Shown here: one piece after another, positions 2,661 to 14,167 of the stretch | Numbering within the stretch: position 1 is the stretch's first letter | Layout: every line of letters begins with the position of its first letter | Translations under genes and position numbers: made by a program | Source: Armatimonadota bacterium | GTDB lineage: Bacteria > Armatimonadota > Hebobacteria > GCA-020354555 > CP070648 | DNA: 14,167 nt | Reading direction: 5' to 3' | Assembly (NCBI GenBank): GCA_020354555.1 | Contig: CP070648.1 | Coordinates: 685,278 to 699,444, forward strand | Notes under the pieces: generated by a model | Told to the model about the DNA's origin: nothing | The model's input: only the letters and a program-made list of their open reading frames with translations | The model's database searches: none

Positions 2661-3698
2661 TCACGGCGTTAACGTCGGCACTGGAATCCCTAGCTGGAGC
2701 GTCTCGGCGTAGCCGGCGACAATGGCCATGACGCAGATGATGGCGATGATGATCATCCCGTCGCGGGTGAGATTGGCAGGTGTCTCCCGGCGTGAAAGGG
2801 CCAGTGCCGCCCAGGCGCCGGCGGCCGCGGCGGCGAAGCCGCGAAGGACCCAGTGGACATCTTCCACGGCGTCCCCCCAAGCATCGAAGGTGATGAGCTG
2901 TACGTAACCGGTCAGTATCTGGAACGCCGCAGCCGCGCCAACGACCGACGCCGCGATCCACACGCCGCGTCGAGCTGCGAGCGCCATCCATGCTGCGGCG
3001 AGGAAGAGGGGCAGAACCGACGCGACCCTACCCGCCATGGCGAGGAGACGCCCTTCGGTATCGGGGAACGCTCTGTACGCGAACAAGACGGTCTGCGCCA
3101 GCGCCATTCCTGTTACCGAGGTCGCGCACCACGCGAGCGCACCGATGGTGACGAGGCTCAATGGCACGCGACGGAAGATGCGGGGTGACAAAGCGCCGCC
3201 GAGACCTCCGCCGGCCAGAACGACCGCGATCTGGACAACCGCCAGCGCGCCGATGTGGAACCGATAATGGAAGAGGGCGGTATCTCCGGAAGACAGCGGC
3301 GCCGCCCAATAGGTGTGGGCAAGCCAGAGAACGCACATCGCCGGCGCCACGACAGCGATCACGCCTGGGCCGACGAGCCACTTCCATCGCTTCACGGCCG
3401 CGCCAGCCAGCGCGCCCACGGCCAGCGCGATCAGCGCGTTGCCGATAATGCTATCAATGTGAAACGGGGGCACCCGAACGGGGAAGCGCGGAGCCGGGGG
3501 GCCACTGTAGGTCACAAGGAAGAAGCTCGGGACGACGGACAGCCACAAGCCCGCGAGTGCGGCCGCCGTGACAAGGAGTAGGATCCGGCCTCCCCGGGTG
3601 GGCGGACCTTCGTCGAGTAGAGCGAAGACCGGCGTGCAACGCGGCGGCGCAGGCCGCTCGACACGGGCACACTGCTGATCCGACCCCTCGCGGCTCAT
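2661..3698 (-). CDS. Polytopic integral membrane protein of unknown family (about 9 predicted TM helices)
   Basis: A long run of hydrophobic helices follows a roughly 40-aa polar N-terminal segment. The start is ambiguous: GTG at 3722, ATG at 3707, or ATG at 3698. A G-rich stretch lies about 10 nt upstream of the 3698 ATG. No family-defining motif was recognised. Confidence 0.55.
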   Translation of the reverse strand: MSREGSDQQCARVERPAPPRCTPVFALLDEGPPTRGGRILLLVTAAALAGLWLSVVPSFFLVTYSGPPAPRFPVRVPPFHIDSIIGNALIALAVGALAGAAVKRWKWLVGPGVIAVVAPAMCVLWLAHTYWAAPLSSGDTALFHYRFHIGALAVVQIAVVLAGGGLGGALSPRIFRRVPLSLVTIGALAWCATSVTGMALAQTVLFAYRAFPDTEGRLLAMAGRVASVLPLFLAAAWMALAARRGVWIAASVVGAAAAFQILTGYVQLITFDAWGDAVEDVHWVLRGFAAAAAGAWAALALSRRETPANLTRDGMIIIAIICVMAIVAGYAETLQLGIPVPTLTP

Positions 3699-3763
3699 GG
3701 TCTGCATACCCCCCGAGGCCACGCTGTCGCTCGCCTCTCAGCCGATCACCGGACGCTGTCCTC

Positions 3764-3818: not shown

Positions 3819-5885
3819 CTACTGCATGCGGCGCAAGGTCTCGCGGCGGATCATGGCGCCGGTCTGCAAGTTGCGCAGCTCGACGCCAACATCGCGGAGC
3901 TGCGCCCAGTTGGTGGGGGCGAGCACCGCGCCGGTTTGGGCGGTGAGCGTCTGCGCGGGAAGCTGCAGCGACCCCACTGTGCCGGCCTGGAAGTTGCGTA
4001 TCTCGATCTCGTAACGCAGGGGCGAACCCGAGCGGTTCTCGACGTTGACGCCGCTGCGGTCGGCCTTGGGCTCGAACAGCACGCCGCGTGCGGCGTCGAG
4101 GAGCTTGATGTCGATGACGCGCTGCTGACGGGGGCCGACGCGCATGATGGTGCGCACCTGAGCCGGGATGTCCTGGGCGAGGAGCAGCGAAGTCTGGTTC
4201 GTCACCAACTTGTCGAGCGTGATGCCAGCCTGGTCGGCGTCAGACGCGACTTCGAAGACGAGGCCGGGGGTGAAGGCGCGCATTCTCCTGCCGCGCGCAT
4301 TGGCGAGCTGGACGTTGAGTTTCTTGTTGCGCGCGCGGCCAAAGACGTAGACATTCGGGAAGTCGGGAGCGGGCGTGATGCCTGTGTCGGGTACGAAGAG
4401 CCCGGCATACGGGATGCGGGTCTTGGAGTCAGTGTTGATGCGGTCGCCGACGTAGAGCCTGCGGCCGGCTTCATCGCTGATCTGGGTTACGCGCGCGGGT
4501 TTGTCCACGACGACGACGGCCATCATCGCGGCCTCGCCTTCCGTCGCTTCGGTCGGCAGGTGCGGGTCGGCGGGCGTGACATCGGCGTAACTGCGGCAGA
4601 TCGTTCTCGTGGCAGAGCCCCAGGTGAGGTCGTCGGTTGTCTTGTTGATGCGCACGACTCTCGTGGTGTCTGACGCTTCGTCCTCGGCATAGGGGACGTT
4701 GTTGTCATAGATGCGGATGCGGCGCTCGTTGCCGACCTCCTCGGTCTGATACGGCCACACGCAGTGCCCCCAGCCGGGGCCGTAAATGCTGAGGAGCGGG
4801 GCGTTCTTGGAGCCGAGTTGGCCGATGAGGTCGCGGCAGCGCTCCCAGGCCTCGTTATGGTCCTGGTTGTCGAGCAGCCACTGGCGGTTGGCCATGACGC
4901 TGGCTTCGAGCTGGGCGCCCTGGTGCTCGTTGACGCTGCGGTGGACTTCGTTGACGAAGTCGTAATTCCAAGCGCGGGGCAGCCGGTGGCTGTTCCACCA
5001 TGATTCGAAAAGCGACCACGGCTGCCAGAAGAGGAAGCGCTCGGCGGACAGGGTCATGCCGAAGCAGTTCCCGCCGGAGCCGACGCGCTTGTAGGTGCTG
5101 TCATACCAAGCCTGGGCAGCCGGGAGGTGGTTGCCGCCAGCGTCCTCGACTTCATTGGCGCCGAAGTAATGGCGGAAGCACTCCCAGGGTATAGTCGCCT
5201 CGCTGAAGTTGGCGAACTTCCAGCCGTGGAGGCCGCGCCAGCCGCGGGGAGCGACGACGCGGTAGTTCAGATGATTGCCGGTGCGATCGGCGGCCGTATC
5301 CTTGAGGTACAGGTCGTAGTCGTGGGCGATGGAGACGCTCGGTATCTCACAGCCGACGCACTCGCCAAAGTCTTCGCCCCACGGCATATAGTACGTGGTG
5401 CGGGCGCTGCCGTTGAACCACACCTGGCAAGTGCTGTTCACTTCGATCCCATAGATGAGGAGCCAACTGCCGGGCGCACCGTCGCCGCTGTCGGGCCAGA
5501 CGTCGGTGATGTGCGGAGGCTTGATCTCGAAGCGCGGGCGGGTCAGGATGTCCTTGCTGAAGCGCATGCTCGCCACGCCGAGTTGGCTGGCGATGCCGGG
5601 ATCGCGGCTTGCCACGACTGCCTGCTGCATGCCCGCGGGGAGTTGGGCGAAGGCGGTGACGACTCTCTGCTTCTGCGCGGTTGACCAGCTCTGCTTCGCC
5701 ACCATGGCCTGGAGGCTCTTCTGCAGGCTGGCCGTGGACAGCTTGACGATTTTCGCGGTCGGGACTGCGCTGACCTTCGGGGCGACCTTGACTTTGGGCG
5801 CTGCGACCTGGGCTTGGGCCGTAACGAGTGACAGCACCAAGGCGAGGCCGACGAGGATGCTGAGGGGAACGCTAACCTTTCGCAT
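3819..5885 (-). CDS. Secreted 689-aa protein of unknown function (Sec signal peptide; central Trp/Cys-rich domain with a possible Cys-His-Asp/Asn core; C-terminal beta-rich region)
   Basis: The true start is the ATG at 5885 (MRKVSVPLSILVGLALVLSLVTAQA|QV, a classic signal peptide). It is preceded by RBS AAAGGAGA with a 7-nt spacer. The 234-aa Arg-rich extension in the 923-aa track ORF overlaps the upstream aldolase gene in another frame and is spurious. Motifs: GSGGNCFGMT, GWGHCVWPY, IRIYDNNVPY. Confidence 0.75.
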   Translation of the reverse strand: MRKVSVPLSILVGLALVLSLVTAQAQVAAPKVKVAPKVSAVPTAKIVKLSTASLQKSLQAMVAKQSWSTAQKQRVVTAFAQLPAGMQQAVVASRDPGIASQLGVASMRFSKDILTRPRFEIKPPHITDVWPDSGDGAPGSWLLIYGIEVNSTCQVWFNGSARTTYYMPWGEDFGECVGCEIPSVSIAHDYDLYLKDTAADRTGNHLNYRVVAPRGWRGLHGWKFANFSEATIPWECFRHYFGANEVEDAGGNHLPAAQAWYDSTYKRVGSGGNCFGMTLSAERFLFWQPWSLFESWWNSHRLPRAWNYDFVNEVHRSVNEHQGAQLEASVMANRQWLLDNQDHNEAWERCRDLIGQLGSKNAPLLSIYGPGWGHCVWPYQTEEVGNERRIRIYDNNVPYAEDEASDTTRVVRINKTTDDLTWGSATRTICRSYADVTPADPHLPTEATEGEAAMMAVVVVDKPARVTQISDEAGRRLYVGDRINTDSKTRIPYAGLFVPDTGITPAPDFPNVYVFGRARNKKLNVQLANARGRRMRAFTPGLVFEVASDADQAGITLDKLVTNQTSLLLAQDIPAQVRTIMRVGPRQQRVIDIKLLDAARGVLFEPKADRSGVNVENRSGSPLRYEIEIRNFQAGTVGSLQLPAQTLTAQTGAVLAPTNWAQLRDVGVELRNLQTGAMIRRETLRRMQ

Positions 5886-6034
5886 CGGACTTTCTCCTTT
5901 GCTGTGACGATGCGCCATGGGTACGCTAGCGGAGCGTATTGTACGTGCGGGCCTCGATATCCTGCCGGGGGGGCGTATTTTCGCGGACAGCTGCCCGTCT
6001 CCGCGAATGGTTGGCGGGTGAGACGCCTGCCCTG

Positions 6035-7087
6035 CTACTGCTTGATGAGCGCCTTGGCCTCGTCGGACATCCATGCGTACTTGTGCCACCACGGCTGGCT
6101 GGTCGCGACGGTGAGGTCTTGGATGAGCTTCATGCGCGGCACGGCAACCGCGGCGAGCGCCGCTTCGAGAGCCTTCCAGTCCGTGACCCCGGGATCGGCG
6201 AACGGGTCCTTGAAGTACGCGCGGCCGCACATGGGCCCGGCGACGAGGTCGCAGACGATGCCGTACTGCGCGGCGTACTGCGGAAAGTCCACTGCCGCGC
6301 TGAGCACGAGCAGCGGGCGATCGACGACTGCCGCCATGGCCTCGGTTGTTTTGCGCACGACCTCGGGGCTGCTGATGCGCGCGAGCTTGCCGTTGTCGTC
6401 GGCCCAGAGCATGGGCACCTGCGTCTTGTAAAAGTCGCCGTAGGGGCCGAAGTCGCGGGCGATTTTGACGAGCGCCTCGGGGAGCCGCTCGCCGATCTCG
6501 CGCTTGGACATGTCGGCGGGGGTGTAGAGGGTCTCGTTGAAGAGCGGCTTGCCGAGCTTGCGGGAGCGCTCCCAGACGCCCGTCAGCCATTCCAGGTTCC
6601 GCTCCCAGGACTCGCGGTGGGCGGGGTCCACCTTGACCAGGGTCTTGAAACCGTCCACGCGGTCGGCGACTTCCTCGGGCTGAGCGGCGAGCTGAGGGAT
6701 CTGGCCTTTGCCGTCTTTCGTGGTCAGGAACTTCGTGTCCTCGAGCCTGCCGATGAGCATAGTGTCGGCGCCGAGGAGGGCGCGGAATCCCTCGGACATG
6801 TAGGCGAGGCTGTTGAACAGCGCCGCGGCCGGGACGCCGCCGAGGACCTTGGCGAACAAACGGGAGACCTCGGTGACGTGATCGTCGGTCGCCTTGTCAG
6901 GGAAGTCCTTCTCGCTGCCGCCGGCGGCGCGGGCGGTCTGGAAGAACCGGGTGAGCAGGCGCAGCACCGAGCTGTGCTGGTCGCAGGCCAAGACATCTAT
7001 CACGCCGTTGGGGGCAAACTTCGCGAGGGTGCTGAACACCTCACGGCTGACCTCGACGCCGTCGGCGAACTCTGCGCATACCGGCAT
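6035..7087 (-). CDS. Class I aldolase of the LacD/tagatose-1,6-bisphosphate aldolase family (aldolase-type TIM barrel), 351 aa
   Basis: The true start is the ATG at 7087, with a very strong RBS GAAGGAGGG and an 8-nt spacer. The 43-aa upstream extension in the track is spurious. Motifs align with LacD. GVIDVLACDQHSS corresponds to ISALAFDQRGA. FKTLVKVDP corresponds to DVLKVEVP, which holds the Schiff-base Lys. LVLSAAVDF corresponds to IYLSAGV. GPMCGRAYF corresponds to GVLCGRATW. Confidence 0.75.
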   Translation of the reverse strand: MPVCAEFADGVEVSREVFSTLAKFAPNGVIDVLACDQHSSVLRLLTRFFQTARAAGGSEKDFPDKATDDHVTEVSRLFAKVLGGVPAAALFNSLAYMSEGFRALLGADTMLIGRLEDTKFLTTKDGKGQIPQLAAQPEEVADRVDGFKTLVKVDPAHRESWERNLEWLTGVWERSRKLGKPLFNETLYTPADMSKREIGERLPEALVKIARDFGPYGDFYKTQVPMLWADDNGKLARISSPEVVRKTTEAMAAVVDRPLLVLSAAVDFPQYAAQYGIVCDLVAGPMCGRAYFKDPFADPGVTDWKALEAALAAVAVPRMKLIQDLTVATSQPWWHKYAWMSDEAKALIKQ

Positions 7088-7104
7088 AGCTTGTCCCTCC
7101 TTCA

Positions 7105-7130
7105 GTGCGCCGTGGAGTGGTTCGGCGCAC
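7105..7130. promoter_or_regulatory. Perfect 8-bp inverted repeat GTGCGCCG-N10-CGGCGCAC immediately upstream of the aldolase RBS (candidate operator or 5'-leader hairpin)
   Basis: Positions 7105-7112 pair exactly with 7123-7130. The repeat sits 5-17 nt upstream of the SD on the aldolase mRNA, inside the 300-bp divergent intergenic region 7088-7387. Confidence 0.3.
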
Positions 7131-7387
7131 GACTCACACGCGGATGCAAACGCATTGGCCGTATGAGATGTCGTTTTCGCCGGGTCTGGGGCGGCTCCTG
7201 CGCTACCCGCGCACAAGCCCGGAACCGCCGTTGGGATGCCAGGATGTTCGCGGCCCGGCGGGGAAAGGGGTAAGCCAACGAGCGCTGGGGCGCCGTGGGC
7301 GCGCCGGGACAGGCAGCGGACCGGTACCGGCGGAGGGAAGGCTCGGCGCCCGGCAGCAAGTCACGCCCCACGCTGAGGAGGACACGG

Positions 7388-8131
7388 ATGATCCTGATAC
7401 CCCTGGGCATCGTAGTGCTGTATCTCATTTCCGGCATACGTCTCCTGTACCAGTACGAGCGCGGCGTGGTGTTCACCCTCGGCGTGTACAAATCCACGCG
7501 CGAGCCGGGCTTGCGGTTCATCTGGCCGATCTTCCAGACCATGCGCAAGGTTGACATCCGGATCAAGACCGCCGACATTCCGCGACAGGAGGTCATGACC
7601 AAGGACAACATCCCAGTGCTTGCGAACACGGTGGTGTATTTCAAGGTGGTCAAGCCGGAGGACGCGATCATCAAGATCGAGGACTACGTGTTCGCGGTAC
7701 GCCAGTACACGCAGGCGGCGCTGCGGGACGTGGTGGGCAACCACGAGCTGGACTTCGTGCTCAGCGAGCGAGAGCAGATCGGCGGGGCCATCGGCGAGAT
7801 GGTGGAACAGGAGACGGCCGACTGGGGGGTGGCGATCGAGTCGATCAAGATACAGGAAATCGAGTTGCCCGCCGAGATGAAGCGGGCCATGGCCAAGCAG
7901 GCCGAGGCGGAGCGCGAGAGGCGGGCGGTGATCATCGCGTCCGAGGGTGAGCTGAGCGCGTCGGTCAATCTGCAGCAGGCGGCGTCGAACCTGTCCAAGG
8001 CCGAGGGTGCGCTGCATCTGCGGACGCTGCAGACCCTGCGCGACATCGCCGCCGATCCGTCGGAGAAGATCATTGCCTTCCTGCCCTCCGAGGCGATCGG
8101 CGTGGCGCGGCGACTCGCATCCGGGGAATGA
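7388..8131 (+). CDS. SPFH/band-7 domain membrane protein (stomatin/prohibitin-like, QmcA/YbbK type)
   Basis: N-terminal TM MILIPLGIVVLYLISGI is followed by a typical SPFH core (ERGVVFTLGVY..., IRIKTADIPRQEVMTKDNIPVLANTVVYFKVVKPEDAI, ALRDVVGNHELDFVLSEREQI) and a coiled-coil Ala/Glu/Arg-rich segment (AEMKRAMAKQAEAERERRAVIIASEGE). RBS GAGGAGG with a 6-nt spacer. The start is the ATG at 7388, not 7295. Confidence 0.9.
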   Translation: MILIPLGIVVLYLISGIRLLYQYERGVVFTLGVYKSTREPGLRFIWPIFQTMRKVDIRIKTADIPRQEVMTKDNIPVLANTVVYFKVVKPEDAIIKIEDYVFAVRQYTQAALRDVVGNHELDFVLSEREQIGGAIGEMVEQETADWGVAIESIKIQEIELPAEMKRAMAKQAEAERERRAVIIASEGELSASVNLQQAASNLSKAEGALHLRTLQTLRDIAADPSEKIIAFLPSEAIGVARRLASGE

Positions 8132-8137
8132 AAGATT

Positions 8138-8803
8138 ATGCTCGACCGCCGCGTACGATACCTGCAACTTGCGTTCAATGAGGACGTCGCCGAGGCCGCG
8201 CGGATTGTGCCGACGCTGCCGCAGGACGAGCGCATTCTGCTGGAGGCGGGGACGCCGTACGTCAAACGGGAGGGCCTGGCGGGGATAGGCAAGATCCGGT
8301 CGCTGTGGCCGGGCGGCCTGGTAGCCGATATCAAGACGACGGATGGCGGGGTGGAGGAAGTCGAGCTGGTGGCGGGGGTCGGGGCGACTGCGGCGACGGT
8401 GATGGGGAGCTGCCCGACCGAGACGCTGGACCGGTTCATCGCCGCCTGCCACGAGTGGGGGATTGACTCGTTGGTGGACATGCTGGGGGTAACCGATCCG
8501 CTGCACGTGCTGCGCCACCTGCGGAGGCCGCCGGCGGGAGTGGTGCTCCACCTGGGGCGCGACGAGGAGAGCACCCGCGGCAAGGTCATCCAGTACCGGC
8601 ACGTCACCCGCATCCGCAGCAAGTATGACGTTGCGATTTCCGCGGCAGGTGGGGTCGGCCTCAAGGAAGCCCGCACGGCGATTTTCAACGGCGCCAACAT
8701 CGTGGTCGCAAACATCGTGGCCACGGGCAAGCCGTGGAACGGCATCCCCGCGGAGGGCGACGTGGCAGGCCTGGCCCGTCAGTTTCTGGCGACGATAGAA
8801 TGA
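8138..8803 (+). CDS. OMP-decarboxylase-suprafamily TIM-barrel protein, 3-hexulose-6-phosphate synthase / 3-keto-L-gulonate-6-P decarboxylase (HPS/KGPDC)-like
   Basis: Starts 6 nt after the SPFH stop. Motifs match KGPDC/HPS. LQLAFNED corresponds to LQVALD on beta1. ILLEAGTP corresponds to IIEVGT (metal Glu). LVADIKTTDGG corresponds to the D-x-K-x-x-D motif. VVLHLGRDEE corresponds to VYHRSRD (His). SAAGGVGLKEARTAIFNGANIVVA corresponds to the C-terminal phosphate-binding GG loop. The conserved beta1 Asp appears to be Asn. Confidence 0.75.
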   Translation: MLDRRVRYLQLAFNEDVAEAARIVPTLPQDERILLEAGTPYVKREGLAGIGKIRSLWPGGLVADIKTTDGGVEEVELVAGVGATAATVMGSCPTETLDRFIAACHEWGIDSLVDMLGVTDPLHVLRHLRRPPAGVVLHLGRDEESTRGKVIQYRHVTRIRSKYDVAISAAGGVGLKEARTAIFNGANIVVANIVATGKPWNGIPAEGDVAGLARQFLATIE

Positions 8804-8986
8804 GGCGGCGGAACGCAGGCAGAGGTCGGCCCGCCTGCCTCGTGCCGGTCTCACGGCCCCCTAGCCACTGCACAAAGTGCCGGATCCCTGGCCGGAGTCG
8901 ATTCATCCCGCTGATCTGTCGCACCGGGAGAGGCATTGGCCCCGCGTGCCCCGGAATCCGGAGCTGCACCCTCGGGTGACGGGGCG

Positions 8987-8995
8987 TGTTATAAT
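8987..8995 (+). promoter_or_regulatory. Possible extended -10 promoter element TGtTATAAT
   Basis: A perfect TATAAT (8990-8995) preceded by TGn lies in an otherwise GC-rich intergenic region, about 60 nt upstream of the ATG at 9057. No convincing -35 is present. Confidence 0.3.
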
Positions 8996-9056
8996 GCGCC
9001 TGCGGCCATGGCCAGCCGCACACCGTCTTCTCGCGAGATGCCGCGACAGGTCGCTT

Positions 9057-9434
9057 ATGGGCTACTTCGATCCGGGAATCGGCGGGCTCGGCGTGACTAG
9101 TCTATTCACGCTCGTGGGCATCGCGTTGATGACGGCTTTCTTCACGTGGCTGAGCGGGTACCGGGGGTGGATCGCGGAGATCACCTTCGGCAACGCCCTG
9201 TCGTTTGGCTTCCTGTACGCCATCACTTACTGGGTGATATGGTTCGCCCTGTCGTTTAGCGGCGCACGCCCCTTGATCGCCTGGATCGTCAGCATCATCA
9301 TGCTACTCCTGCTAATCAAGAGAAGCTTCGCCGCGACCTGGCGGCGCGCGCTCGTTACGTGGCTGGTAACGGTAGCCGGACTAGCCGCAACAGGCATCGT
9401 GCTTGGAATGACAGTCTTCACCCGCTCCCAATGA
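9057..9434 (+). CDS. Small (125 aa) 4-TM membrane protein of unknown function
   Basis: The sequence is hydrophobic throughout (MGYFDPGIGGLGVTSLFTLVGIALMTAFF...). The likely start is the ATG at 9057; the track's 8877 start is preceded by non-coding-looking sequence. Codon usage is atypical for this genome (cta, aga, aag, ttt). The SD is weak. Confidence 0.5.
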   Translation: MGYFDPGIGGLGVTSLFTLVGIALMTAFFTWLSGYRGWIAEITFGNALSFGFLYAITYWVIWFALSFSGARPLIAWIVSIIMLLLLIKRSFAATWRRALVTWLVTVAGLAATGIVLGMTVFTRSQ

Positions 9435-9537
9435 GTCGGGCCCGGCACGCGACGGCGCCCCGATAAGCGTCCTACATCGCAATCGGCTCATCTGATGCGC
9501 AGCCTGCGCTCTAGCCCGAACTGAGCCGAACGTGGAC

Positions 9538-10374
9538 TTACCCGCTGCGCTTGAGCTTGCCGTGGCGCTTGCAGTAAGTCTCGGCGAGGCTGAAGACCCA
9601 CAGGCCGAGCGGAATCAACGCCACCGCCGTGACGATCAACGGCAGGATATCTCCCCACAGCTCGCGCATGCCGGCCCCATCGAGGATCGCCGCGCGCATG
9701 CCGTGCAGCGTGTAGGTTATCGGCGAGAACTGAGAGAAGAAGCGCAACCAGCCCGGCAGCACGTCAATCGGGTAGTACACGCCGCTGACCATGAGCAAGG
9801 CGGCCTCGAAGATGTTCGTCATCTGAGTGCCCTTTTCGGTGTAGATGAGGGGGAGCGCGGCGGCGGCCAGACCGAGCCCGACCAGCGACAACGTGGCGAT
9901 GGCGAGCACGGCGCATGCGCCGACGAGGTTGGCCGAGGCGAGGTCGATGTCAAACATGAGCGCGCACACGGCAGTCAGAATGACCAGCCTCCCGCCGGCG
10001 TAGCAGACCGAGAATGCAGTCATCCCGAACAGGTGCGTCGCGCGGGAGACGGGCGCCATGAAGGTGTGCTCGATGGTGCCCTCCCACCTCTCATAGGAGA
10101 TGACATTGCTCGTCTCCCAGAACAGCTCCGAGAGATAGCGCCACAGCAGCGAACCGGTCAACAGGTAGATCAGCACCTTGCCCACCGGCACGTCGGCGCC
10201 GCTGACCTGCCCAACGCCGACGGCGAGGAAGCCGATGGAGAGGACGATGGCGCTGGAGTAGATGAGCCAGCTCACTTCCCACGGCCAGTAGCGCTTCATC
10301 AGGGCGAAGCTGCGCCCGAGGAAGGCGTAGAACGGCCGCGCCTTGAGGCGGACCGTCATGGCTATTGCTTGCAT
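9538..10374 (-). CDS. ABC-2 type transporter permease
   Basis: Six-TM ABC-2 architecture with the typical N-terminal cytoplasmic helix (FYAFLGRSFALMKRYWPWEVSW) and a conserved C-terminal portion. RBS AAGGAG. It lies 54 bp downstream of the ATPase gene on the same strand, so the two form an operon. Confidence 0.85.
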   Translation of the reverse strand: MQAIAMTVRLKARPFYAFLGRSFALMKRYWPWEVSWLIYSSAIVLSIGFLAVGVGQVSGADVPVGKVLIYLLTGSLLWRYLSELFWETSNVISYERWEGTIEHTFMAPVSRATHLFGMTAFSVCYAGGRLVILTAVCALMFDIDLASANLVGACAVLAIATLSLVGLGLAAAALPLIYTEKGTQMTNIFEAALLMVSGVYYPIDVLPGWLRFFSQFSPITYTLHGMRAAILDGAGMRELWGDILPLIVTAVALIPLGLWVFSLAETYCKRHGKLKRSG

Positions 10375-11577: not shown

Positions 11578-14167
11578 TCAAGATCCAAACCGAGGCGGCA
11601 ACGCGATTTCGACCAGAACAGTATCCACGTCGCGGTCGGCACCGACGGCGAGGATGGCTCCGGCTTCGTCGACGGCGACGCCGGCGCCGCCGTAAGTGCG
11701 GCCGGTCCACGGGCCGTGCGCAATCTGGCCGACCAGATCCACGCCGACGACGGGCGCGCCGATCGCGGTTGCGGCGGCGGCGACGGTATCGTGCAGCCGC
11801 TGGTGATGCTGCGGCCAGGCCTCTTCCCGTTCCGCCCACCCGTAGGGGACGATGACGAGCTGCGGCCGGCATCGGCGCATGGCGCCAAGGATGTCCTCGC
11901 GAAAGGTATCGGCGCAGATGAGCATCCCGATGCGGCCGAGGCGGGTCTCGACGGCGGCGATATCCTCGATGATCCCCTTGCTGTAGGGCGGTTCCATGAG
12001 CCAGTCCAAAGTGTTGATCTTGCGATGCTTGAGGAGCAGTGTGCCGTCGGAGTCGATGAGCGCGGCCGCGTCGTAGAGCTTGTCGCCGTCTTTCTCCGCG
12101 AGGCCGATGGCGAGCATCAGGCCGTACTCACGGGCGAGCGCACCGAGGCGCTCCGTGTCCTCGCCGGGGATGGCGTGTCCGCGCTTGTGCGCCTCGGGGT
12201 TGACCCAGCCGAGCAGAGACATCTCGGGGAAGCACGCGATATCGGCCCGTTGCTCGCGCGCGCGGGCGAGGGCGCGCTCGATGCGGGCGTAGTTGCCGCT
12301 CTTGTCGCCGTCGAGGCAGAGGATCTGACACATCGCCGCACGCAGGGTCATTGCTGTCTCGCGTCCAGGGGTCGTTGACTCGGTTTTCCCGCGGGCGAGG
12401 TATGGTTCCTGCCGCGCCGCGAATTGCCCACGCACGCTTCCGTCCGCGCCACGGATGACCGCCGCCGCCTCGCCCGGGAAGTCTTTCTGGTCGAGGCGGA
12501 GGGCGCCTTCCCGATCGGCGAAGGCGACGGTAACGATCTCGTCGCCGCGGTGCAGCCGTACGCCGGGGCATCGGCCCGGCAGGGCCTCGACTTCCACTAC
12601 TGCCGACGGCTCGCCTTCCCGCGCCACGGCGATGACGGTGATGAAGTCCGCGGTGCGAGCAGGCTCTGCGGTTTCGACGGTGAGATGCCATTCGGGCACG
12701 GTCTTGCCGGTCTCGGGTTCGAGCGGATAGCGGTCGGTCTGGGTGAAGCGGACTTTGGCCGGCGCGACGAAGCTGATGCGCGCCCGGGCATTGCCGTGCC
12801 GCAGCAGCACGGTGTTGTCGCGCTCGGATATCTCAAACGGGGAGCGCCCGTGCGCCAGCCACTGCACGGCAACCGGTTCGTCCGCGACCACGCGATCGTG
12901 GATGACGAAGACATCCGGGCGCACGAACATGATGCGGCGCGCGACCTCCCGCGCGTTGTCGTAGGCGGCGCCCGCATCGCCGGAGGTGTATGTGAAGCGC
13001 CCGTCGTGCCGGAAGGCAGTGATATTGCCCACCGCATTCGCGCTGCGCGACTGGCCTTCGCCGTTGACGAGGATGCAGTTGTGACTGAGCGTCGCCCAGT
13101 AGTACTGGCGGCAGAACTCGCTGCCGTACCACGGGCGGATGCCCGTGTTGACGAGCAGCGGTTCCCCATAGGCAGCAAGGACGATAGCATTCTGGTCGGC
13201 GTGGGCGTGGCTGATGTTGCCCATCGCACTGCTGCGGAACATGAGCTGGACGTCATCATCCGGATTGGCGAGATCGGTGTGCATCGCGACCCAGCCGGTG
13301 CCGCGGAAGAGCCTGGCGGTGGGCAAGTCGTCCGGCGACTTGGCCTCCGCCGGCGGTCGGGCGGCGCGCAGGAAGCCGATGGGCGTGTCCTCGTGTTCTG
13401 CCGCACCCCACGCTTCCGCGTACCACTTCCAGTACGGGTTGCCCACGGCATCGGCGAAGTAGTTGACGACTCGGCCCGCGCTGGACGGGGCGCCGCGCTC
13501 CCCGTAGTCGCCAAAGCCGCTGATCGGCGAACGCGGAGCGGCGCAATACAATGGGAAGTCGCCGACCTTGCTGAAGAACGGCTTCCGCGTGCCGTCAATG
13601 CCGGTCGCGACGTTGAGCGCGTCGAGCCACCACGTGACGCGGTTGATGTAGCTGTTCCAGTAGGCGATCCCCTCGGACCATCCGCCGTCGCTATCGGACC
13701 AGATGGGGTACCAGCCCCAGAAGATGGCGATGGCGTACTCGAGCCAGCGATCGGCCTCTTCGATCTCGTCGTGGTACGCGATCGCCGCCTCGCCGAGGAA
13801 GTGCCACATGCGGCCGCCGTGGCTGTCGTAGGCGCGCTGCTCGTAGGGGCGCCCGTGGAGTCGCCGGTAGGCCTCCTCGCCGCGGGCGCGAATCATGTCG
13901 CGCAGGACGCGGCGGTCGTCGTCGCTCAGCGCGTCGTGGATCCAGTCGTAGGCGCGCGAGGTGATATGGAGAATCGGCATGCCCGCCTCGTCGTTGACCT
14001 TGATGCTCGTGCTGCCCGCAGGATCCCACGACGCGATATGCAGCAACCACTCGCGAACGCGCTGCGCGTACTTCTTCTCGCCGCTGATGAGGTAGGCAAA
14101 CGCCATCGTCTCGATCCCGTTACACGCCTTGACCACTGCGCCGTAGTTGCGTCGCCACTCCGCGGCA
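11578..14167 (-). CDS. Bifunctional-looking fusion of an N-terminal heparinase II/III-like domain and a C-terminal carbon-nitrogen hydrolase (nitrilase-superfamily) domain; the 5' end runs past the window edge
   Basis: One uninterrupted minus-strand frame. The N-terminal part contains DGGWSEGIAYWNSY and the Hepar_II_III hallmark SSAMGNISHAHADQNAIVLAAYGEPLLVNTG (compare GHGHADALSFEL..GEPLLVDSG). The C-terminal 257 aa have the CN-hydrolase Glu-Lys-Cys triad context: MCQILCLDGD...ACFPEMSL (Glu), TLLLKHRKINT (Lys), GMLICADTF (Cys). The track's GTG 'start' at 14136 is not preceded by a stop, and the frame stays open to 14167, so the true N-terminus is outside the window. Confidence 0.8.
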   Translation of the reverse strand, partial: AAEWRRNYGAVVKACNGIETMAFAYLISGEKKYAQRVREWLLHIASWDPAGSTSIKVNDEAGMPILHITSRAYDWIHDALSDDDRRVLRDMIRARGEEAYRRLHGRPYEQRAYDSHGGRMWHFLGEAAIAYHDEIEEADRWLEYAIAIFWGWYPIWSDSDGGWSEGIAYWNSYINRVTWWLDALNVATGIDGTRKPFFSKVGDFPLYCAAPRSPISGFGDYGERGAPSSAGRVVNYFADAVGNPYWKWYAEAWGAAEHEDTPIGFLRAARPPAEAKSPDDLPTARLFRGTGWVAMHTDLANPDDDVQLMFRSSAMGNISHAHADQNAIVLAAYGEPLLVNTGIRPWYGSEFCRQYYWATLSHNCILVNGEGQSRSANAVGNITAFRHDGRFTYTSGDAGAAYDNAREVARRIMFVRPDVFVIHDRVVADEPVAVQWLAHGRSPFEISERDNTVLLRHGNARARISFVAPAKVRFTQTDRYPLEPETGKTVPEWHLTVETAEPARTADFITVIAVAREGEPSAVVEVEALPGRCPGVRLHRGDEIVTVAFADREGALRLDQKDFPGEAAAVIRGADGSVRGQFAARQEPYLARGKTESTTPGRETAMTLRAAMCQILCLDGDKSGNYARIERALARAREQRADIACFPEMSLLGWVNPEAHKRGHAIPGEDTERLGALAREYGLMLAIGLAEKDGDKLYDAAALIDSDGTLLLKHRKINTLDWLMEPPYSKGIIEDIAAVETRLGRIGMLICADTFREDILGAMRRCRPQLVIVPYGWAEREEAWPQHHQRLHDTVAAAATAIGAPVVGVDLVGQIAHGPWTGRTYGGAGVAVDEAGAILAVGADRDVDTVLVEIALPPRFGS

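Follow-up and report, generated by a model that had tools for sequence, protein, structure and literature searches.

We examined a 14,167-nt stretch of Armatimonadota DNA (hereafter the window; contig CP070648.1, positions 685,278 to 699,444 of the forward strand, assembly GCA_020354555.1), in which a p-stomatin ("slipin", SPFH1-type) gene is followed almost immediately by a gene encoding a TIM-barrel protein related to 3-hexulose-6-phosphate synthase (HPS). The features of this locus are collected in the table below. ATG 7388 as the start of the stomatin gene, rather than the GTG at 7295 that begins the mechanically called ORF, is supported by an upstream Shine-Dalgarno-like sequence and by homologues of 247 aa that start at the same position. 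Long minus-strand ORFs cover the same region, but these are shadow ORFs: the plus-strand genes have GC3 of 0.86-0.89, and the antisense frames shrink to about 109 codons in homologous loci with 35% GC.

Features of the stomatin-barrel locus, in coordinates of the window
Position	Strand	Feature	Remarks
6035-7216		Divergent aldolase-like gene	No homologue in any related locus
7361-8854	-	Long ORF	Shadow ORF
7376-7381	+	Shine-Dalgarno-like AGGAGG	6 nt upstream of the SPFH start codon
7388-8131	+	p-stomatin gene, 247 aa	ATG 7388-7390, TGA 8129-8131; identical protein deposited as "SPFH domain-containing protein", Armatimonadota MAG
7391-7447	+	N-terminal membrane anchor of the stomatin	Residues 2-20
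7684-8745	-	Long ORF	Shadow ORF
8132-8137	+	6-nt spacer	GGGGAA purine run 9 nt upstream of the barrel ATG
8138-8803	+	Asn-type HPS-like (beta/alpha)8 barrel gene, 221 aa	ATG 8138-8140, TGA 8801-8803; no TM segment; deposited as UCH35301.1 "hypothetical protein"
8177-8179	+	Codon for N14	Replaces the first-strand Asp of the suprafamily
8243-8245	+	Codon for E36 (strand 2, LLEAGT)	Aligned with the metal-ligand Glu of KGPDC/HPS
8327-8344	+	D64-I-K66-T-T-D69	D-x-K-x-x-D motif of strand 3
8549-8584	+	H138-L-G-R141-D-E-E-S-T-R147-G-K149	Strand-6 His and the loop after it; residues 141-151 have pLDDT below 50 and may be mobile
8648-8653	+	G171-G172	Strand-7 phosphate-binding loop
8702-8737	+	V189-V-A-N192-I-V-A-T-G-K-P199-W200	Remodelled strand-8 region
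9057-9434		4-TM ORF	No homologue in any of the 84 related loci

The first protein matches Pfam Band_7 (PF01145) at 135.5 bits (2.6e-39; cut-off 23.6), and among solved structures it is closest to the stomatins, with PH1511 at 2.7e-45 and the human stomatin 16-mer cage at 3e-45, the latter aligned over residues 16-236 and hence through the helical and C-terminal regions that build the cage; QmcA (1e-28) and HflK (1.7e-12) are more distant, and NCBIfam HflK/HflC/FloT models are all far below cut-off. Its N-terminal hydrophobic segment (Kyte-Doolittle mean of 2.35 over 19 residues) has no Lys/Arg before it and two after it, so by the positive-inside rule the SPFH domain is predicted to be cytoplasmic, in agreement with the orientation reported for YbbK/QmcA (PMC2636767). 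An AF2 model of this protein was poor (pLDDT 50, with a shallow alignment) and was not used for fold comparison.

The second protein matches Pfam OMPdecase at 44.2 bits (cut-off 27), and its best solved relatives are HPS structures (9lj9, 4.6e-19; 3f4w, 4.2e-16; 3ajx, 4.5e-13), followed by KGPDC. Its AF2 model (pLDDT 87) has eight beta-alpha units, and Foldseek comparison gives a TM-score of 0.80 to HPS 3f4w, about 0.74 to KGPDC and about 0.7 to OMPDC. The barrel thus stays in the HPS/KGPDC branch of the OMPDC suprafamily by sequence and by predicted fold. An earlier note, made from the sequence alone, had proposed that the otherwise conserved Asp of the first strand is replaced by Asn in this protein, and we confirm this: both a single-sequence search and a family-profile search align N14 with the Asp of LQ[VL]ALD in HPS and KGPDC. 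The nearby D16 aligns with the helix-cap Asp of HPS itself, so shifting the register does not restore the Asp. The note was likewise correct as to the gene coordinates, the retained motifs and the resemblance to HPS and KGPDC, and each of the tests it proposed came out in favor of its interpretation. Two corrections are needed, however: that the genes are co-translated, which it took as evident, is an inference from conserved close spacing, and the small 4-TM ORF that it placed just downstream is not part of the module.

The stomatin gene is directly upstream of the barrel gene, on the same strand, in 84 of 84 related loci fetched (82 non-redundant), from about nine bacterial and archaeal phyla including Armatimonadota, Chloroflexota, Aminicenantes/Acidobacteriota, WS1 and several archaeal phyla. 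In these loci the stomatins are 63-85% identical, and the distance from the SPFH stop to the start codon of the barrel (the conserved start, or that of its N-terminal extension) is 1-15 nt in most cases, with a median of about 9. No third gene is found in more than 10 loci; all-against-all ORF clustering found nothing conserved beyond the pair, and a minus-strand cluster present in 80 loci is made of antisense shadow ORFs. Pairwise distances of SPFH and barrel correlate at r = 0.73, with 0 of 2000 permutations reaching that value, indicating co-inheritance. It should be noted that nearly all loci come from metagenome-assembled genomes, that only the 80 best of about 420 genome hits were inspected, and that the Fisher and Mantel statistics are not corrected for phylogeny.

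The association recurs with a different gene arrangement in a sister clade in Patescibacteria (CPR), which also has Asn. In 5 of 5 of these loci, two Asn-type barrel paralogs (CPR barA and barB) lie next to a convergent Band_7 gene that is 56-59% identical to that of the window, and 4 of 5 CPR barB proteins carry a hydrophobic stretch of about 30 residues with a central [ND]-P, as do many representatives of 310-400 aa. In contrast, the nearest Asp-type relatives are archaeal Fae-HPS fusions, bona fide Fae/Hps (a control scores 644 bits against a cut-off of 274), and 0 of 80 have SPFH nearby, although 57 of them have room for an upstream gene.

The Asn is invariant in 83/83 operon-clade sequences, 5/5 CPR barA and 122/122 CPR barB, against Asp in 80/80 of the nearest relatives and in every solved HPS/KGPDC sequence that covers this position. 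Across these 210 Asn-type sequences, spanning three clades about 40% identical to each other, E36, D64, K66, D69, D114, H138 and D142 are invariant, as is the GG loop except in one CPR barA sequence; E36 may serve as a Mg2+ ligand, by analogy with Glu33 of KGPDC. The strand-6 segment is invariant in the operon clade, where R141 aligns with KGPDC R139, a position at which HPS has I/L/T and the CPR clade has V. The Asn-type-specific residues N184 and K149 are invariant or nearly so. In strand 8, N192 and W200 are invariant in the operon clade, and MAFFT places W200 (and the Trp of the CPR clade) in the column holding the strand-8 Gly in 80/80 Fae-HPS controls and in solved HPS, whereas phmmer puts A191-N192 opposite G-S; the Gly-Arg/Ser phosphate motif is absent under either alignment. 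The paired changes at strands 1 and 8 define a new functional subgroup of the OMPDC suprafamily.

We consider the most likely explanation, with a probability of roughly 0.6, to be that the two genes form a conserved, horizontally mobile two-gene module on the cytoplasmic membrane face, consisting of a p-stomatin of the cage-forming type and a soluble HPS-like TIM-barrel enzyme of a distinct Asn-type clade, with the barrel taking the operon position that NfeD proteins usually hold next to prokaryotic stomatins. Whereas the genetic linkage is established, physical association, cage formation and chemistry are inferred. One could envision the barrel being made from the same mRNA a few nucleotides downstream, probably forming a dimer like its relatives, and being held at or in the stomatin assembly, where it would carry out Mg2+-dependent enediolate-type chemistry on a phosphorylated sugar-like substrate that differs from the ribulose-5-P/hexulose-6-P pair of true HPS. 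The self-anchored barrel paralog of the CPR sister clade lends independent support to the idea of a membrane-anchored enzyme, which the earlier note had raised. However, there is no direct evidence of protein-protein contact, and no SPFH-barrel fusion was seen among the 84 loci, the one apparent 485-aa fusion having an in-frame TAG 12 nt before the barrel ATG. Roughly equal co-expression would not fit a 16-26-mer cage enclosing its partner, so any encapsulated fraction would have to be small, or the barrels would sit on the outside. Loss of the strand-1 Asp and of the strand-8 phosphate motif is also what a non-catalytic derivative might show, although the conservation pattern favors catalysis.

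Alternatively, the barrel may be an ordinary HPS used for formaldehyde fixation or for reverse-RuMP pentose synthesis, with the stomatin merely co-transcribed, for example as a membrane-stress protein, and the two proteins not touching. HPS structures are its closest solved relatives, the HPS domain of Fae/Hps is its best NCBIfam hit, D114 and A170 match the HPS-type residues at KGPDC positions 112 and 169, and JGI annotates family members as Fae/Hps. Nevertheless, we regard this as unlikely. Scores fall well below the curated cut-offs (82.7 against 200 for HxlA, TIGR03128; 131 against 274 for Fae/Hps, PRK13307), and the strand-1 Asp and strand-8 Gly-Arg/Ser, both invariant in true HPS controls, are replaced in every member. 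R141 occupies the position that was changed to Val in the engineered KGPDC E112D/R139V/T169A variant (1xbx, 1xbz), a variant apparently made to raise HPS activity. No isomerase or any other third gene is conserved nearby, although an isomerase encoded elsewhere in the genome cannot be excluded, and a mere co-regulation link would not explain a self-anchored paralog in CPR.

It is somewhat less likely still that the barrel is a non-catalytic, ligand-binding subunit (a pseudoenzyme) that senses a sugar phosphate or a metal and regulates assembly or gating of the stomatin complex. Two hallmark positions of the suprafamily are altered in the whole family, and conservation is unusually high over the entire length of the protein, with 67% mean identity across phyla and 63% between bacteria and archaea, which suggests constraints beyond an active site. 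However, pseudoenzymes usually lose residues such as the metal ligands, the Lys and both Asp of D-x-K-x-x-D, D114, H138, D142 and GG that are retained here, and Asn keeps the hydrogen-bonding capacity of Asp. A fortuitous adjacency, or one peculiar to this genome, is refuted by the recurrence of the same pair in the same order and spacing while all other neighbors differ.

In known SPFH-NfeD operons (E. coli QmcA-YbbJ; P. horikoshii PH1511 with PH1510), a prokaryotic p-stomatin is likewise co-transcribed with one dedicated partner gene, and the pair is inherited and laterally transferred as a unit (PMC2636767). Here, the partner is a TIM-barrel enzyme homologue which in the clade of the window has no membrane segment at all; no NfeD (PF01957) is listed in the Pfam annotation of the 8 annotated related loci, and none of the window ORFs scanned against Pfam matched it. 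As compared to HPS (HxlA) and the HPS domain of archaeal Fae/Hps, the barrel shares the Glu and Asp metal ligands, D-x-K-x-x-D, the His-x-Gly-x-Asp-Glu motif and the GG loop, but it has Arg at position 141 (operon clade only), no Fae domain (only profile positions 173-359 of Fae/Hps are matched) and no isomerase partner. Identity to KGPDC (UlaD) is only about 20%, with an NCBIfam score of 36.5 bits against a cut-off of 294; of the Glu112/Arg139/Thr169 triad, here Asp114/Arg141/Ala170, only the Arg matches, and no ascorbate-utilization genes are nearby. HflK/C-FtsH, an SPFH cage enclosing an enzyme, and flotillin-associated rhodopsins are precedents for SPFH assemblies that organize or enclose a specific client protein and for conserved SPFH gene partners other than NfeD (PMC12478178, PMC12624060, PMC10308929), but those clients are integral membrane proteins (a protease, a rhodopsin), whereas here the client would be a soluble metabolic-type barrel, or one tethered by a hairpin. 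We found no prior description of the pairing in the literature searched, including a 2009 survey of prokaryotic SPFH operons.

A more speculative possibility, which we consider doubtful, is that the stomatin ring encloses, or is lined by, the barrel enzyme, forming a membrane-attached protein nanocompartment. The sugar-phosphate-type reaction, possibly one that releases a reactive small molecule such as formaldehyde or CO2, would then run inside a cap about 12 nm wide whose pore of about 1.8 nm gates metabolite traffic. This would be the first enzyme cargo of a prokaryotic stomatin, and would give a biochemical function to an SPFH family that is retained even in the minimal genomes of CPR bacteria and DPANN archaea.

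What prokaryotic stomatins do is still largely unknown, and their only recognized dedicated partners are NfeD proteins; the module described here may give them a concrete enzyme partner to study. About 420 species-level genomes hold a relative of the barrel, there is a large sister clade in Patescibacteria, and the module is kept in reduced CPR and DPANN genomes and is highly conserved, at 63-68% identity between bacteria and archaea, all of which argues for an important role. Because these barrels are currently auto-annotated as "Fae/Hps", "KGPDC" or "orotidine 5'-phosphate decarboxylase", false calls of the RuMP pathway or of pyrimidine synthesis could arise in metabolic reconstructions of uncultured lineages.

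There were no PADLOC hits to suggest a defense system for either protein or for the 4-TM ORF. No Rfam match was found in 6900-9600 even at E <= 1. No sigma-70-like promoter was found, the two terminator-like hits lie inside the 4-TM ORF, and the hairpin after the barrel stop folds no better than shuffled sequence (z = -0.65). Finally, although the two genes share a frame in this window, spacers of 5 and 8 nt are common elsewhere, and programmed read-through was therefore rejected.

Both genes of the pair show the codon-position GC pattern of real genes in a 66% GC genome, with GC3 of 0.86-0.89, and they abut on the plus strand with a spacer of only 6 nt. The long minus-strand ORFs over the same DNA are shadows, as the longest antisense frame falls to about 109 codons in homologous loci of 35% GC. 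Identical proteins are deposited from an Armatimonadota metagenome-assembled genome, on a 4.88 Mb contig, under the names "SPFH domain-containing protein" and "hypothetical protein". Coordinates of these and of the other features are collected in the table below.

Positions of features in the window and in related loci (L numbers are our designations for fetched loci; an empty cell means that no value was recorded)
Locus	Position	Strand	Feature
Window	7388-8131	+	Stomatin gene, 247 aa; ATG at 7388, preceded by AGGAGG; TGA at 8129-8131
Window	8138-8803	+	HPS-like barrel gene, 221 aa; ATG at 8138, TGA at 8801-8803
Window	6035-7216	-	Aldolase-like protein, 393 aa, divergently transcribed
Window	11578-14136	-	Heparinase II/III-like region with C-terminal carbon-nitrogen hydrolase domain, 852 aa
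Window	3819-5900	-	Large ORF without Pfam hit; mechanical ORF 3819-6590
Window	2661-3722	-	Large ORF without Pfam hit, 353 aa
L002 (Chloroflexota)	6001-6741		Barrel with N-terminal extension
L010 (Chloroflexota)	from 5842		Barrel with N-terminal extension
L014, L015, L027 (Chloroflexota)			Barrel with N-terminal extension
L004 (same contig as L012; protein P0236)	5075-5992		Partner stomatin ending in a zinc ribbon
L085 (CPR)	5001-5939		Barrel B with hydrophobic stretch
L089 (CPR)	5001-5954		Barrel B with hydrophobic stretch
L090 (CPR)	5001-5927		Barrel B with hydrophobic stretch
L091 (CPR)	5001-5939		Barrel B with hydrophobic stretch
L087 (CPR)	6224-6481	-	ORF with EF-Tu domain-2-like fold, 85 aa
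L089 (CPR)	6422-6679	-	ORF with EF-Tu domain-2-like fold, 85 aa

The first protein is a standard prokaryotic stomatin. It easily passes Pfam Band_7, and its best solved relatives are P. horikoshii stomatin PH1511 (2.7e-45) and human stomatin (3e-45), followed by QmcA (1e-28) and, far behind, HflK. A single N-terminal hydrophobic segment (residues 2-20) has Lys/Arg only on its C-terminal side, which by hydropathy rules predicts a cytoplasmic SPFH domain, as reported for E. coli YbbK/QmcA (PMC2636767). A structural model of this protein was of low confidence (pLDDT 50) and was not used.

The second protein is an HPS-like TIM barrel, but it is not an HPS by the curated criteria. Pfam assigns it to OMPdecase, whereas among the NCBIfam models the HPS domain of archaeal Fae/Hps ranks first (131 bits, cut-off 274), HxlA follows (82.7, cut-off 200), and UlaD is far lower (36.5, cut-off 294), all of them below threshold. 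An AlphaFold model built on 25 family members has pLDDT 87 and eight beta-alpha units, and Foldseek comparison of the model ranks HPS structures first (3f4w, TM 0.80; 3ajx; 9lj9), then KGPDC (about 0.74), then OMPDC. Profile-to-PDB alignments fix the active-site register: E36, D64-x-K66-x-x-D69, H138, D142, and G171-G172 match the catalytic and phosphate-loop residues of HPS and KGPDC, although the roles assigned to individual residues rest on homology and on the general picture of KGPDC and HPS. At the three positions altered in the engineered KGPDC E112D/R139V/T169A variant (PDB 1xbx and 1xbz), the protein has Asp114, Arg141, and Ala170, a mixture of HPS-like, KGPDC-like, and HPS-like residues, respectively. 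N14 sits opposite the Asp of LQ[VL]ALD in every alignment, and because the nearby D16 pairs with HPS's own helix-cap Asp, no register shift restores the Asp.

The pairing is both conserved and specific. A search of 5.8 billion proteins found about 2000 relatives, of which the top 120 are 63-99% identical, and a scan of one genome per species found about 420 genomes encoding a relative. We inspected only the 80 best of these, nearly all of them metagenome-assembled; they come from Armatimonadota, Chloroflexota (mostly Anaerolineae), Aminicenantes/Acidobacteriota, WS1, and the archaeal Woesearchaeota, Nanoarchaeota, Iainarchaeum, Altiarchaeales, Methanosarcinales, and Nitrososphaerota. In all 80, and in four further loci reached through individual proteins, tblastn finds a stomatin gene 63-85% identical to that of the window immediately upstream on the same strand; after removal of duplicates, this is 82 of 82 loci. 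Some of the partner stomatins (302-305 aa) end in a zinc-ribbon domain (PF13240/PF13248), an unusual C-terminal addition to a stomatin. The distance from the stomatin stop to the barrel start is 1-15 nt in most loci, with one locus having a 471-nt gap. The other longer gaps belong to Chloroflexi barrels with an N-terminal extension of 25-52 aa (also seen in aligned family members P0045, P0053, P0056, and P0120), whose own start codon again lies about 5-6 nt after the stop; the extension has a conserved basic start (ML+xI[IL]RKQ[LIV]..A) and could be a docking or membrane-binding peptide.

Clustering of all flanking ORFs shows no third gene shared by more than 10 loci, and neither the 4-TM gene nor the aldolase-like gene of the window has a counterpart in any of the related loci. 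The latter is weakly related to tagatose-1,6-bisphosphate aldolase (NCBIfam NF009498, 61.6 bits against a cut-off of 184), has no Pfam hit, and is a second sugar-phosphate-type barrel next to the module in this genome, but it is not conserved there elsewhere. Pairwise distances of the stomatin and the barrel correlate (r = 0.73, reached by 0 of 2000 permutations, without correction for shared ancestry), so the two are inherited and transferred together. Mean identity is 72% for the stomatin and 67% for the barrel, and bacterial and archaeal copies are still 68% and 63% identical, respectively, which points to strong constraint, to transfer between the domains, or to both.

A sister clade shows the same association in a different form. 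An exhaustive search of cluster representatives revealed a second tier at 38-50% identity, many of whose members are 310-400 aa long with the barrel at the C-terminal end, and these also carry Asn at the strand-1 position (YLQIALN). Their N-terminal extension begins with about 30 hydrophobic residues split by a conserved Asn/Asp-Pro (for example IAFIAFILFLVNPIFSLFFIIVTIL) and followed by a Lys-rich stretch, with a low-complexity linker of about 70 residues, a layout that resembles a monotopic hairpin anchor. These proteins belong to Patescibacteria. In five of five loci from different lineages, a soluble barrel A (222 aa) and a barrel B (about 310 aa, with the predicted anchor in four of the five) are followed by a convergently oriented Band_7 gene 8 to about 900 nt away, while other neighbours vary. 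In two of these loci, the 85-aa ORF with an EF-Tu domain-2-like fold (PF03144) lies between the barrel genes and the stomatin gene, and an adjacent ORF of about 150 aa has no Pfam hit and looks membrane-embedded in L087. Both barrel paralogs are Asn-type and 39-42% identical to the barrel of the window, and the stomatin is 56-59% identical to that of the window. The link between Asn-type barrels and stomatin thus survives a change of gene order and strand, and in this clade, to judge from hydropathy, the barrel is tied to the membrane directly.

For comparison, the nearest relatives with the canonical Asp were used to scan metagenome contigs. All 80 loci recovered read YLQ[IV][AS][LFMI]D, and none has a stomatin homologue in the fetched flanks; of these, 57 have at least 1.5 kb upstream and 44 have room on both sides. 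They are archaeal Fae-HPS fusion genes, and one representative scores 644 bits against the Fae/Hps model. One further Asp-type relative at 40% identity also has no Band_7 neighbour. Asn at strand 1 and stomatin adjacency therefore coincide perfectly in this sample, 87 against 0 (nominal Fisher p of about 1e-41, not corrected for phylogeny).

A joint alignment of 83 operon-clade, 5 + 122 CPR (barrels A and B), and 80 Fae-HPS sequences plus solved structures identifies what distinguishes the Asn-type barrels. Position 14 is Asn in all Asn-type sequences but Asp in all controls and in the solved structures that cover it, and N184 and W200 are invariant in all Asn-type clades and variable or absent in the controls. 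The Trp falls in the column of the strand-8 Gly of the Gly-Arg/Ser motif, which is Gly in 80/80 controls, and the operon clade has in addition an 8-residue insertion beginning with the invariant N192. R141 is specific to the operon clade, being Val in CPR and Ile in Fae-HPS. The metal ligands, Lys66, both Asp of the strand-3 motif, D114, H138, D142, and the GG loop are invariant throughout, save for the GG loop in one CPR barrel A sequence. The loop 141-151 (RDEESTRGK) is invariant in the operon clade but modelled with low confidence, as expected of a mobile active-site loop. Soluble Asn-type barrels have Arg or Lys at position 158 (Arg 74/83 and Lys 9/83 in the operon clade; Arg 4/5 and Lys 1/5 in barrel A), on a helix that in the window is rich in basic residues (R154, H155, R158, R160, K162), whereas the anchored CPR barrel B has Gln at positions 155 (121/122) and 158 (122/122); this may be a surface for binding the stomatin or the membrane. 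In this suprafamily, the strand-1 Asp probably hydrogen-bonds substrate hydroxyls or the strand-2/3 residues, and the strand-8 Gly-Arg is likely to grip the phosphate. Changing both while keeping the enediolate-stabilising core suggests an active enzyme with a different substrate or a different binding mode rather than a dead one.

Human stomatin is a 16-mer about 10.4 nm high, with an inner diameter of about 11.8 nm and a pore of about 1.8 nm (PMC12344292), and QmcA, solved together with its NfeD partner YbbJ, is a 26-mer (Tan et al. 2024, as cited in PMC12624060 and PMC12478178). Sequestration of clients inside SPFH cages is an idea actively discussed in the field (PMC12624060). By analogy, we propose that the stomatin described here forms such an assembly on the cytoplasmic face, to which the barrel, made from the same transcript, would be recruited. 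The CPR version would reach the same location by giving one paralog its own anchor, possibly as an A/B heterodimer, since relatives are dimers with shared active sites. However, physical contact, cage formation, and chemistry are all inferences, and no fusion of the two genes exists among the loci examined to serve as a Rosetta stone.

Alternatively, one could envision a plain HPS with an unrelated, co-transcribed stomatin, but this is disfavoured by the sub-threshold scores, the altered strands 1 and 8, the missing isomerase or Fae partner nearby, the perfect contrast with true Fae/Hps, and the anchored CPR paralog. A non-catalytic sensor subunit remains possible, given the changed hallmark residues and the conservation over the whole length, although it is unlikely, fitting poorly with an otherwise invariant catalytic core. 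Chance adjacency is excluded.

The 2009 survey of prokaryotic SPFH operons recognised only NfeD partners and states that the other subgroups have no identifiable conserved partner (PMC2636767), and none of our literature searches found a paper linking stomatin, SPFH, or band 7 with HPS, OMP decarboxylase, or HUMPS proteins; PADLOC and Rfam likewise gave nothing. What appears to be new is thus an SPFH operon-partner module in which an enzyme-type barrel of a new OMPDC-suprafamily subgroup replaces NfeD. Databases label the barrels generically or wrongly ("hypothetical", "KGPDC", "orotidine 5'-phosphate decarboxylase / HUMPS family"), with JGI and NCBI pipelines calling Asn-type barrels "bifunctional enzyme Fae/Hps", "3-keto-L-gulonate-6-phosphate decarboxylase", or "orotidine 5'-phosphate decarboxylase", which could produce false calls of the RuMP pathway or of pyrF in reconstructions of CPR, DPANN, and Chloroflexi genomes.

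Elsewhere in the window, the 852-aa protein combines a heparinase II/III-like region (DUF4962 + Hepar_II_III_C) with a carbon-nitrogen hydrolase domain, an unusual fusion. Of the two large ORFs without a Pfam hit, the 353-aa one has several long hydrophobic stretches by eye and may be membrane-embedded, whereas the other, in its mechanical form, begins with a long Arg/Pro-rich stretch that is probably not coding, so that its real start is likely internal.
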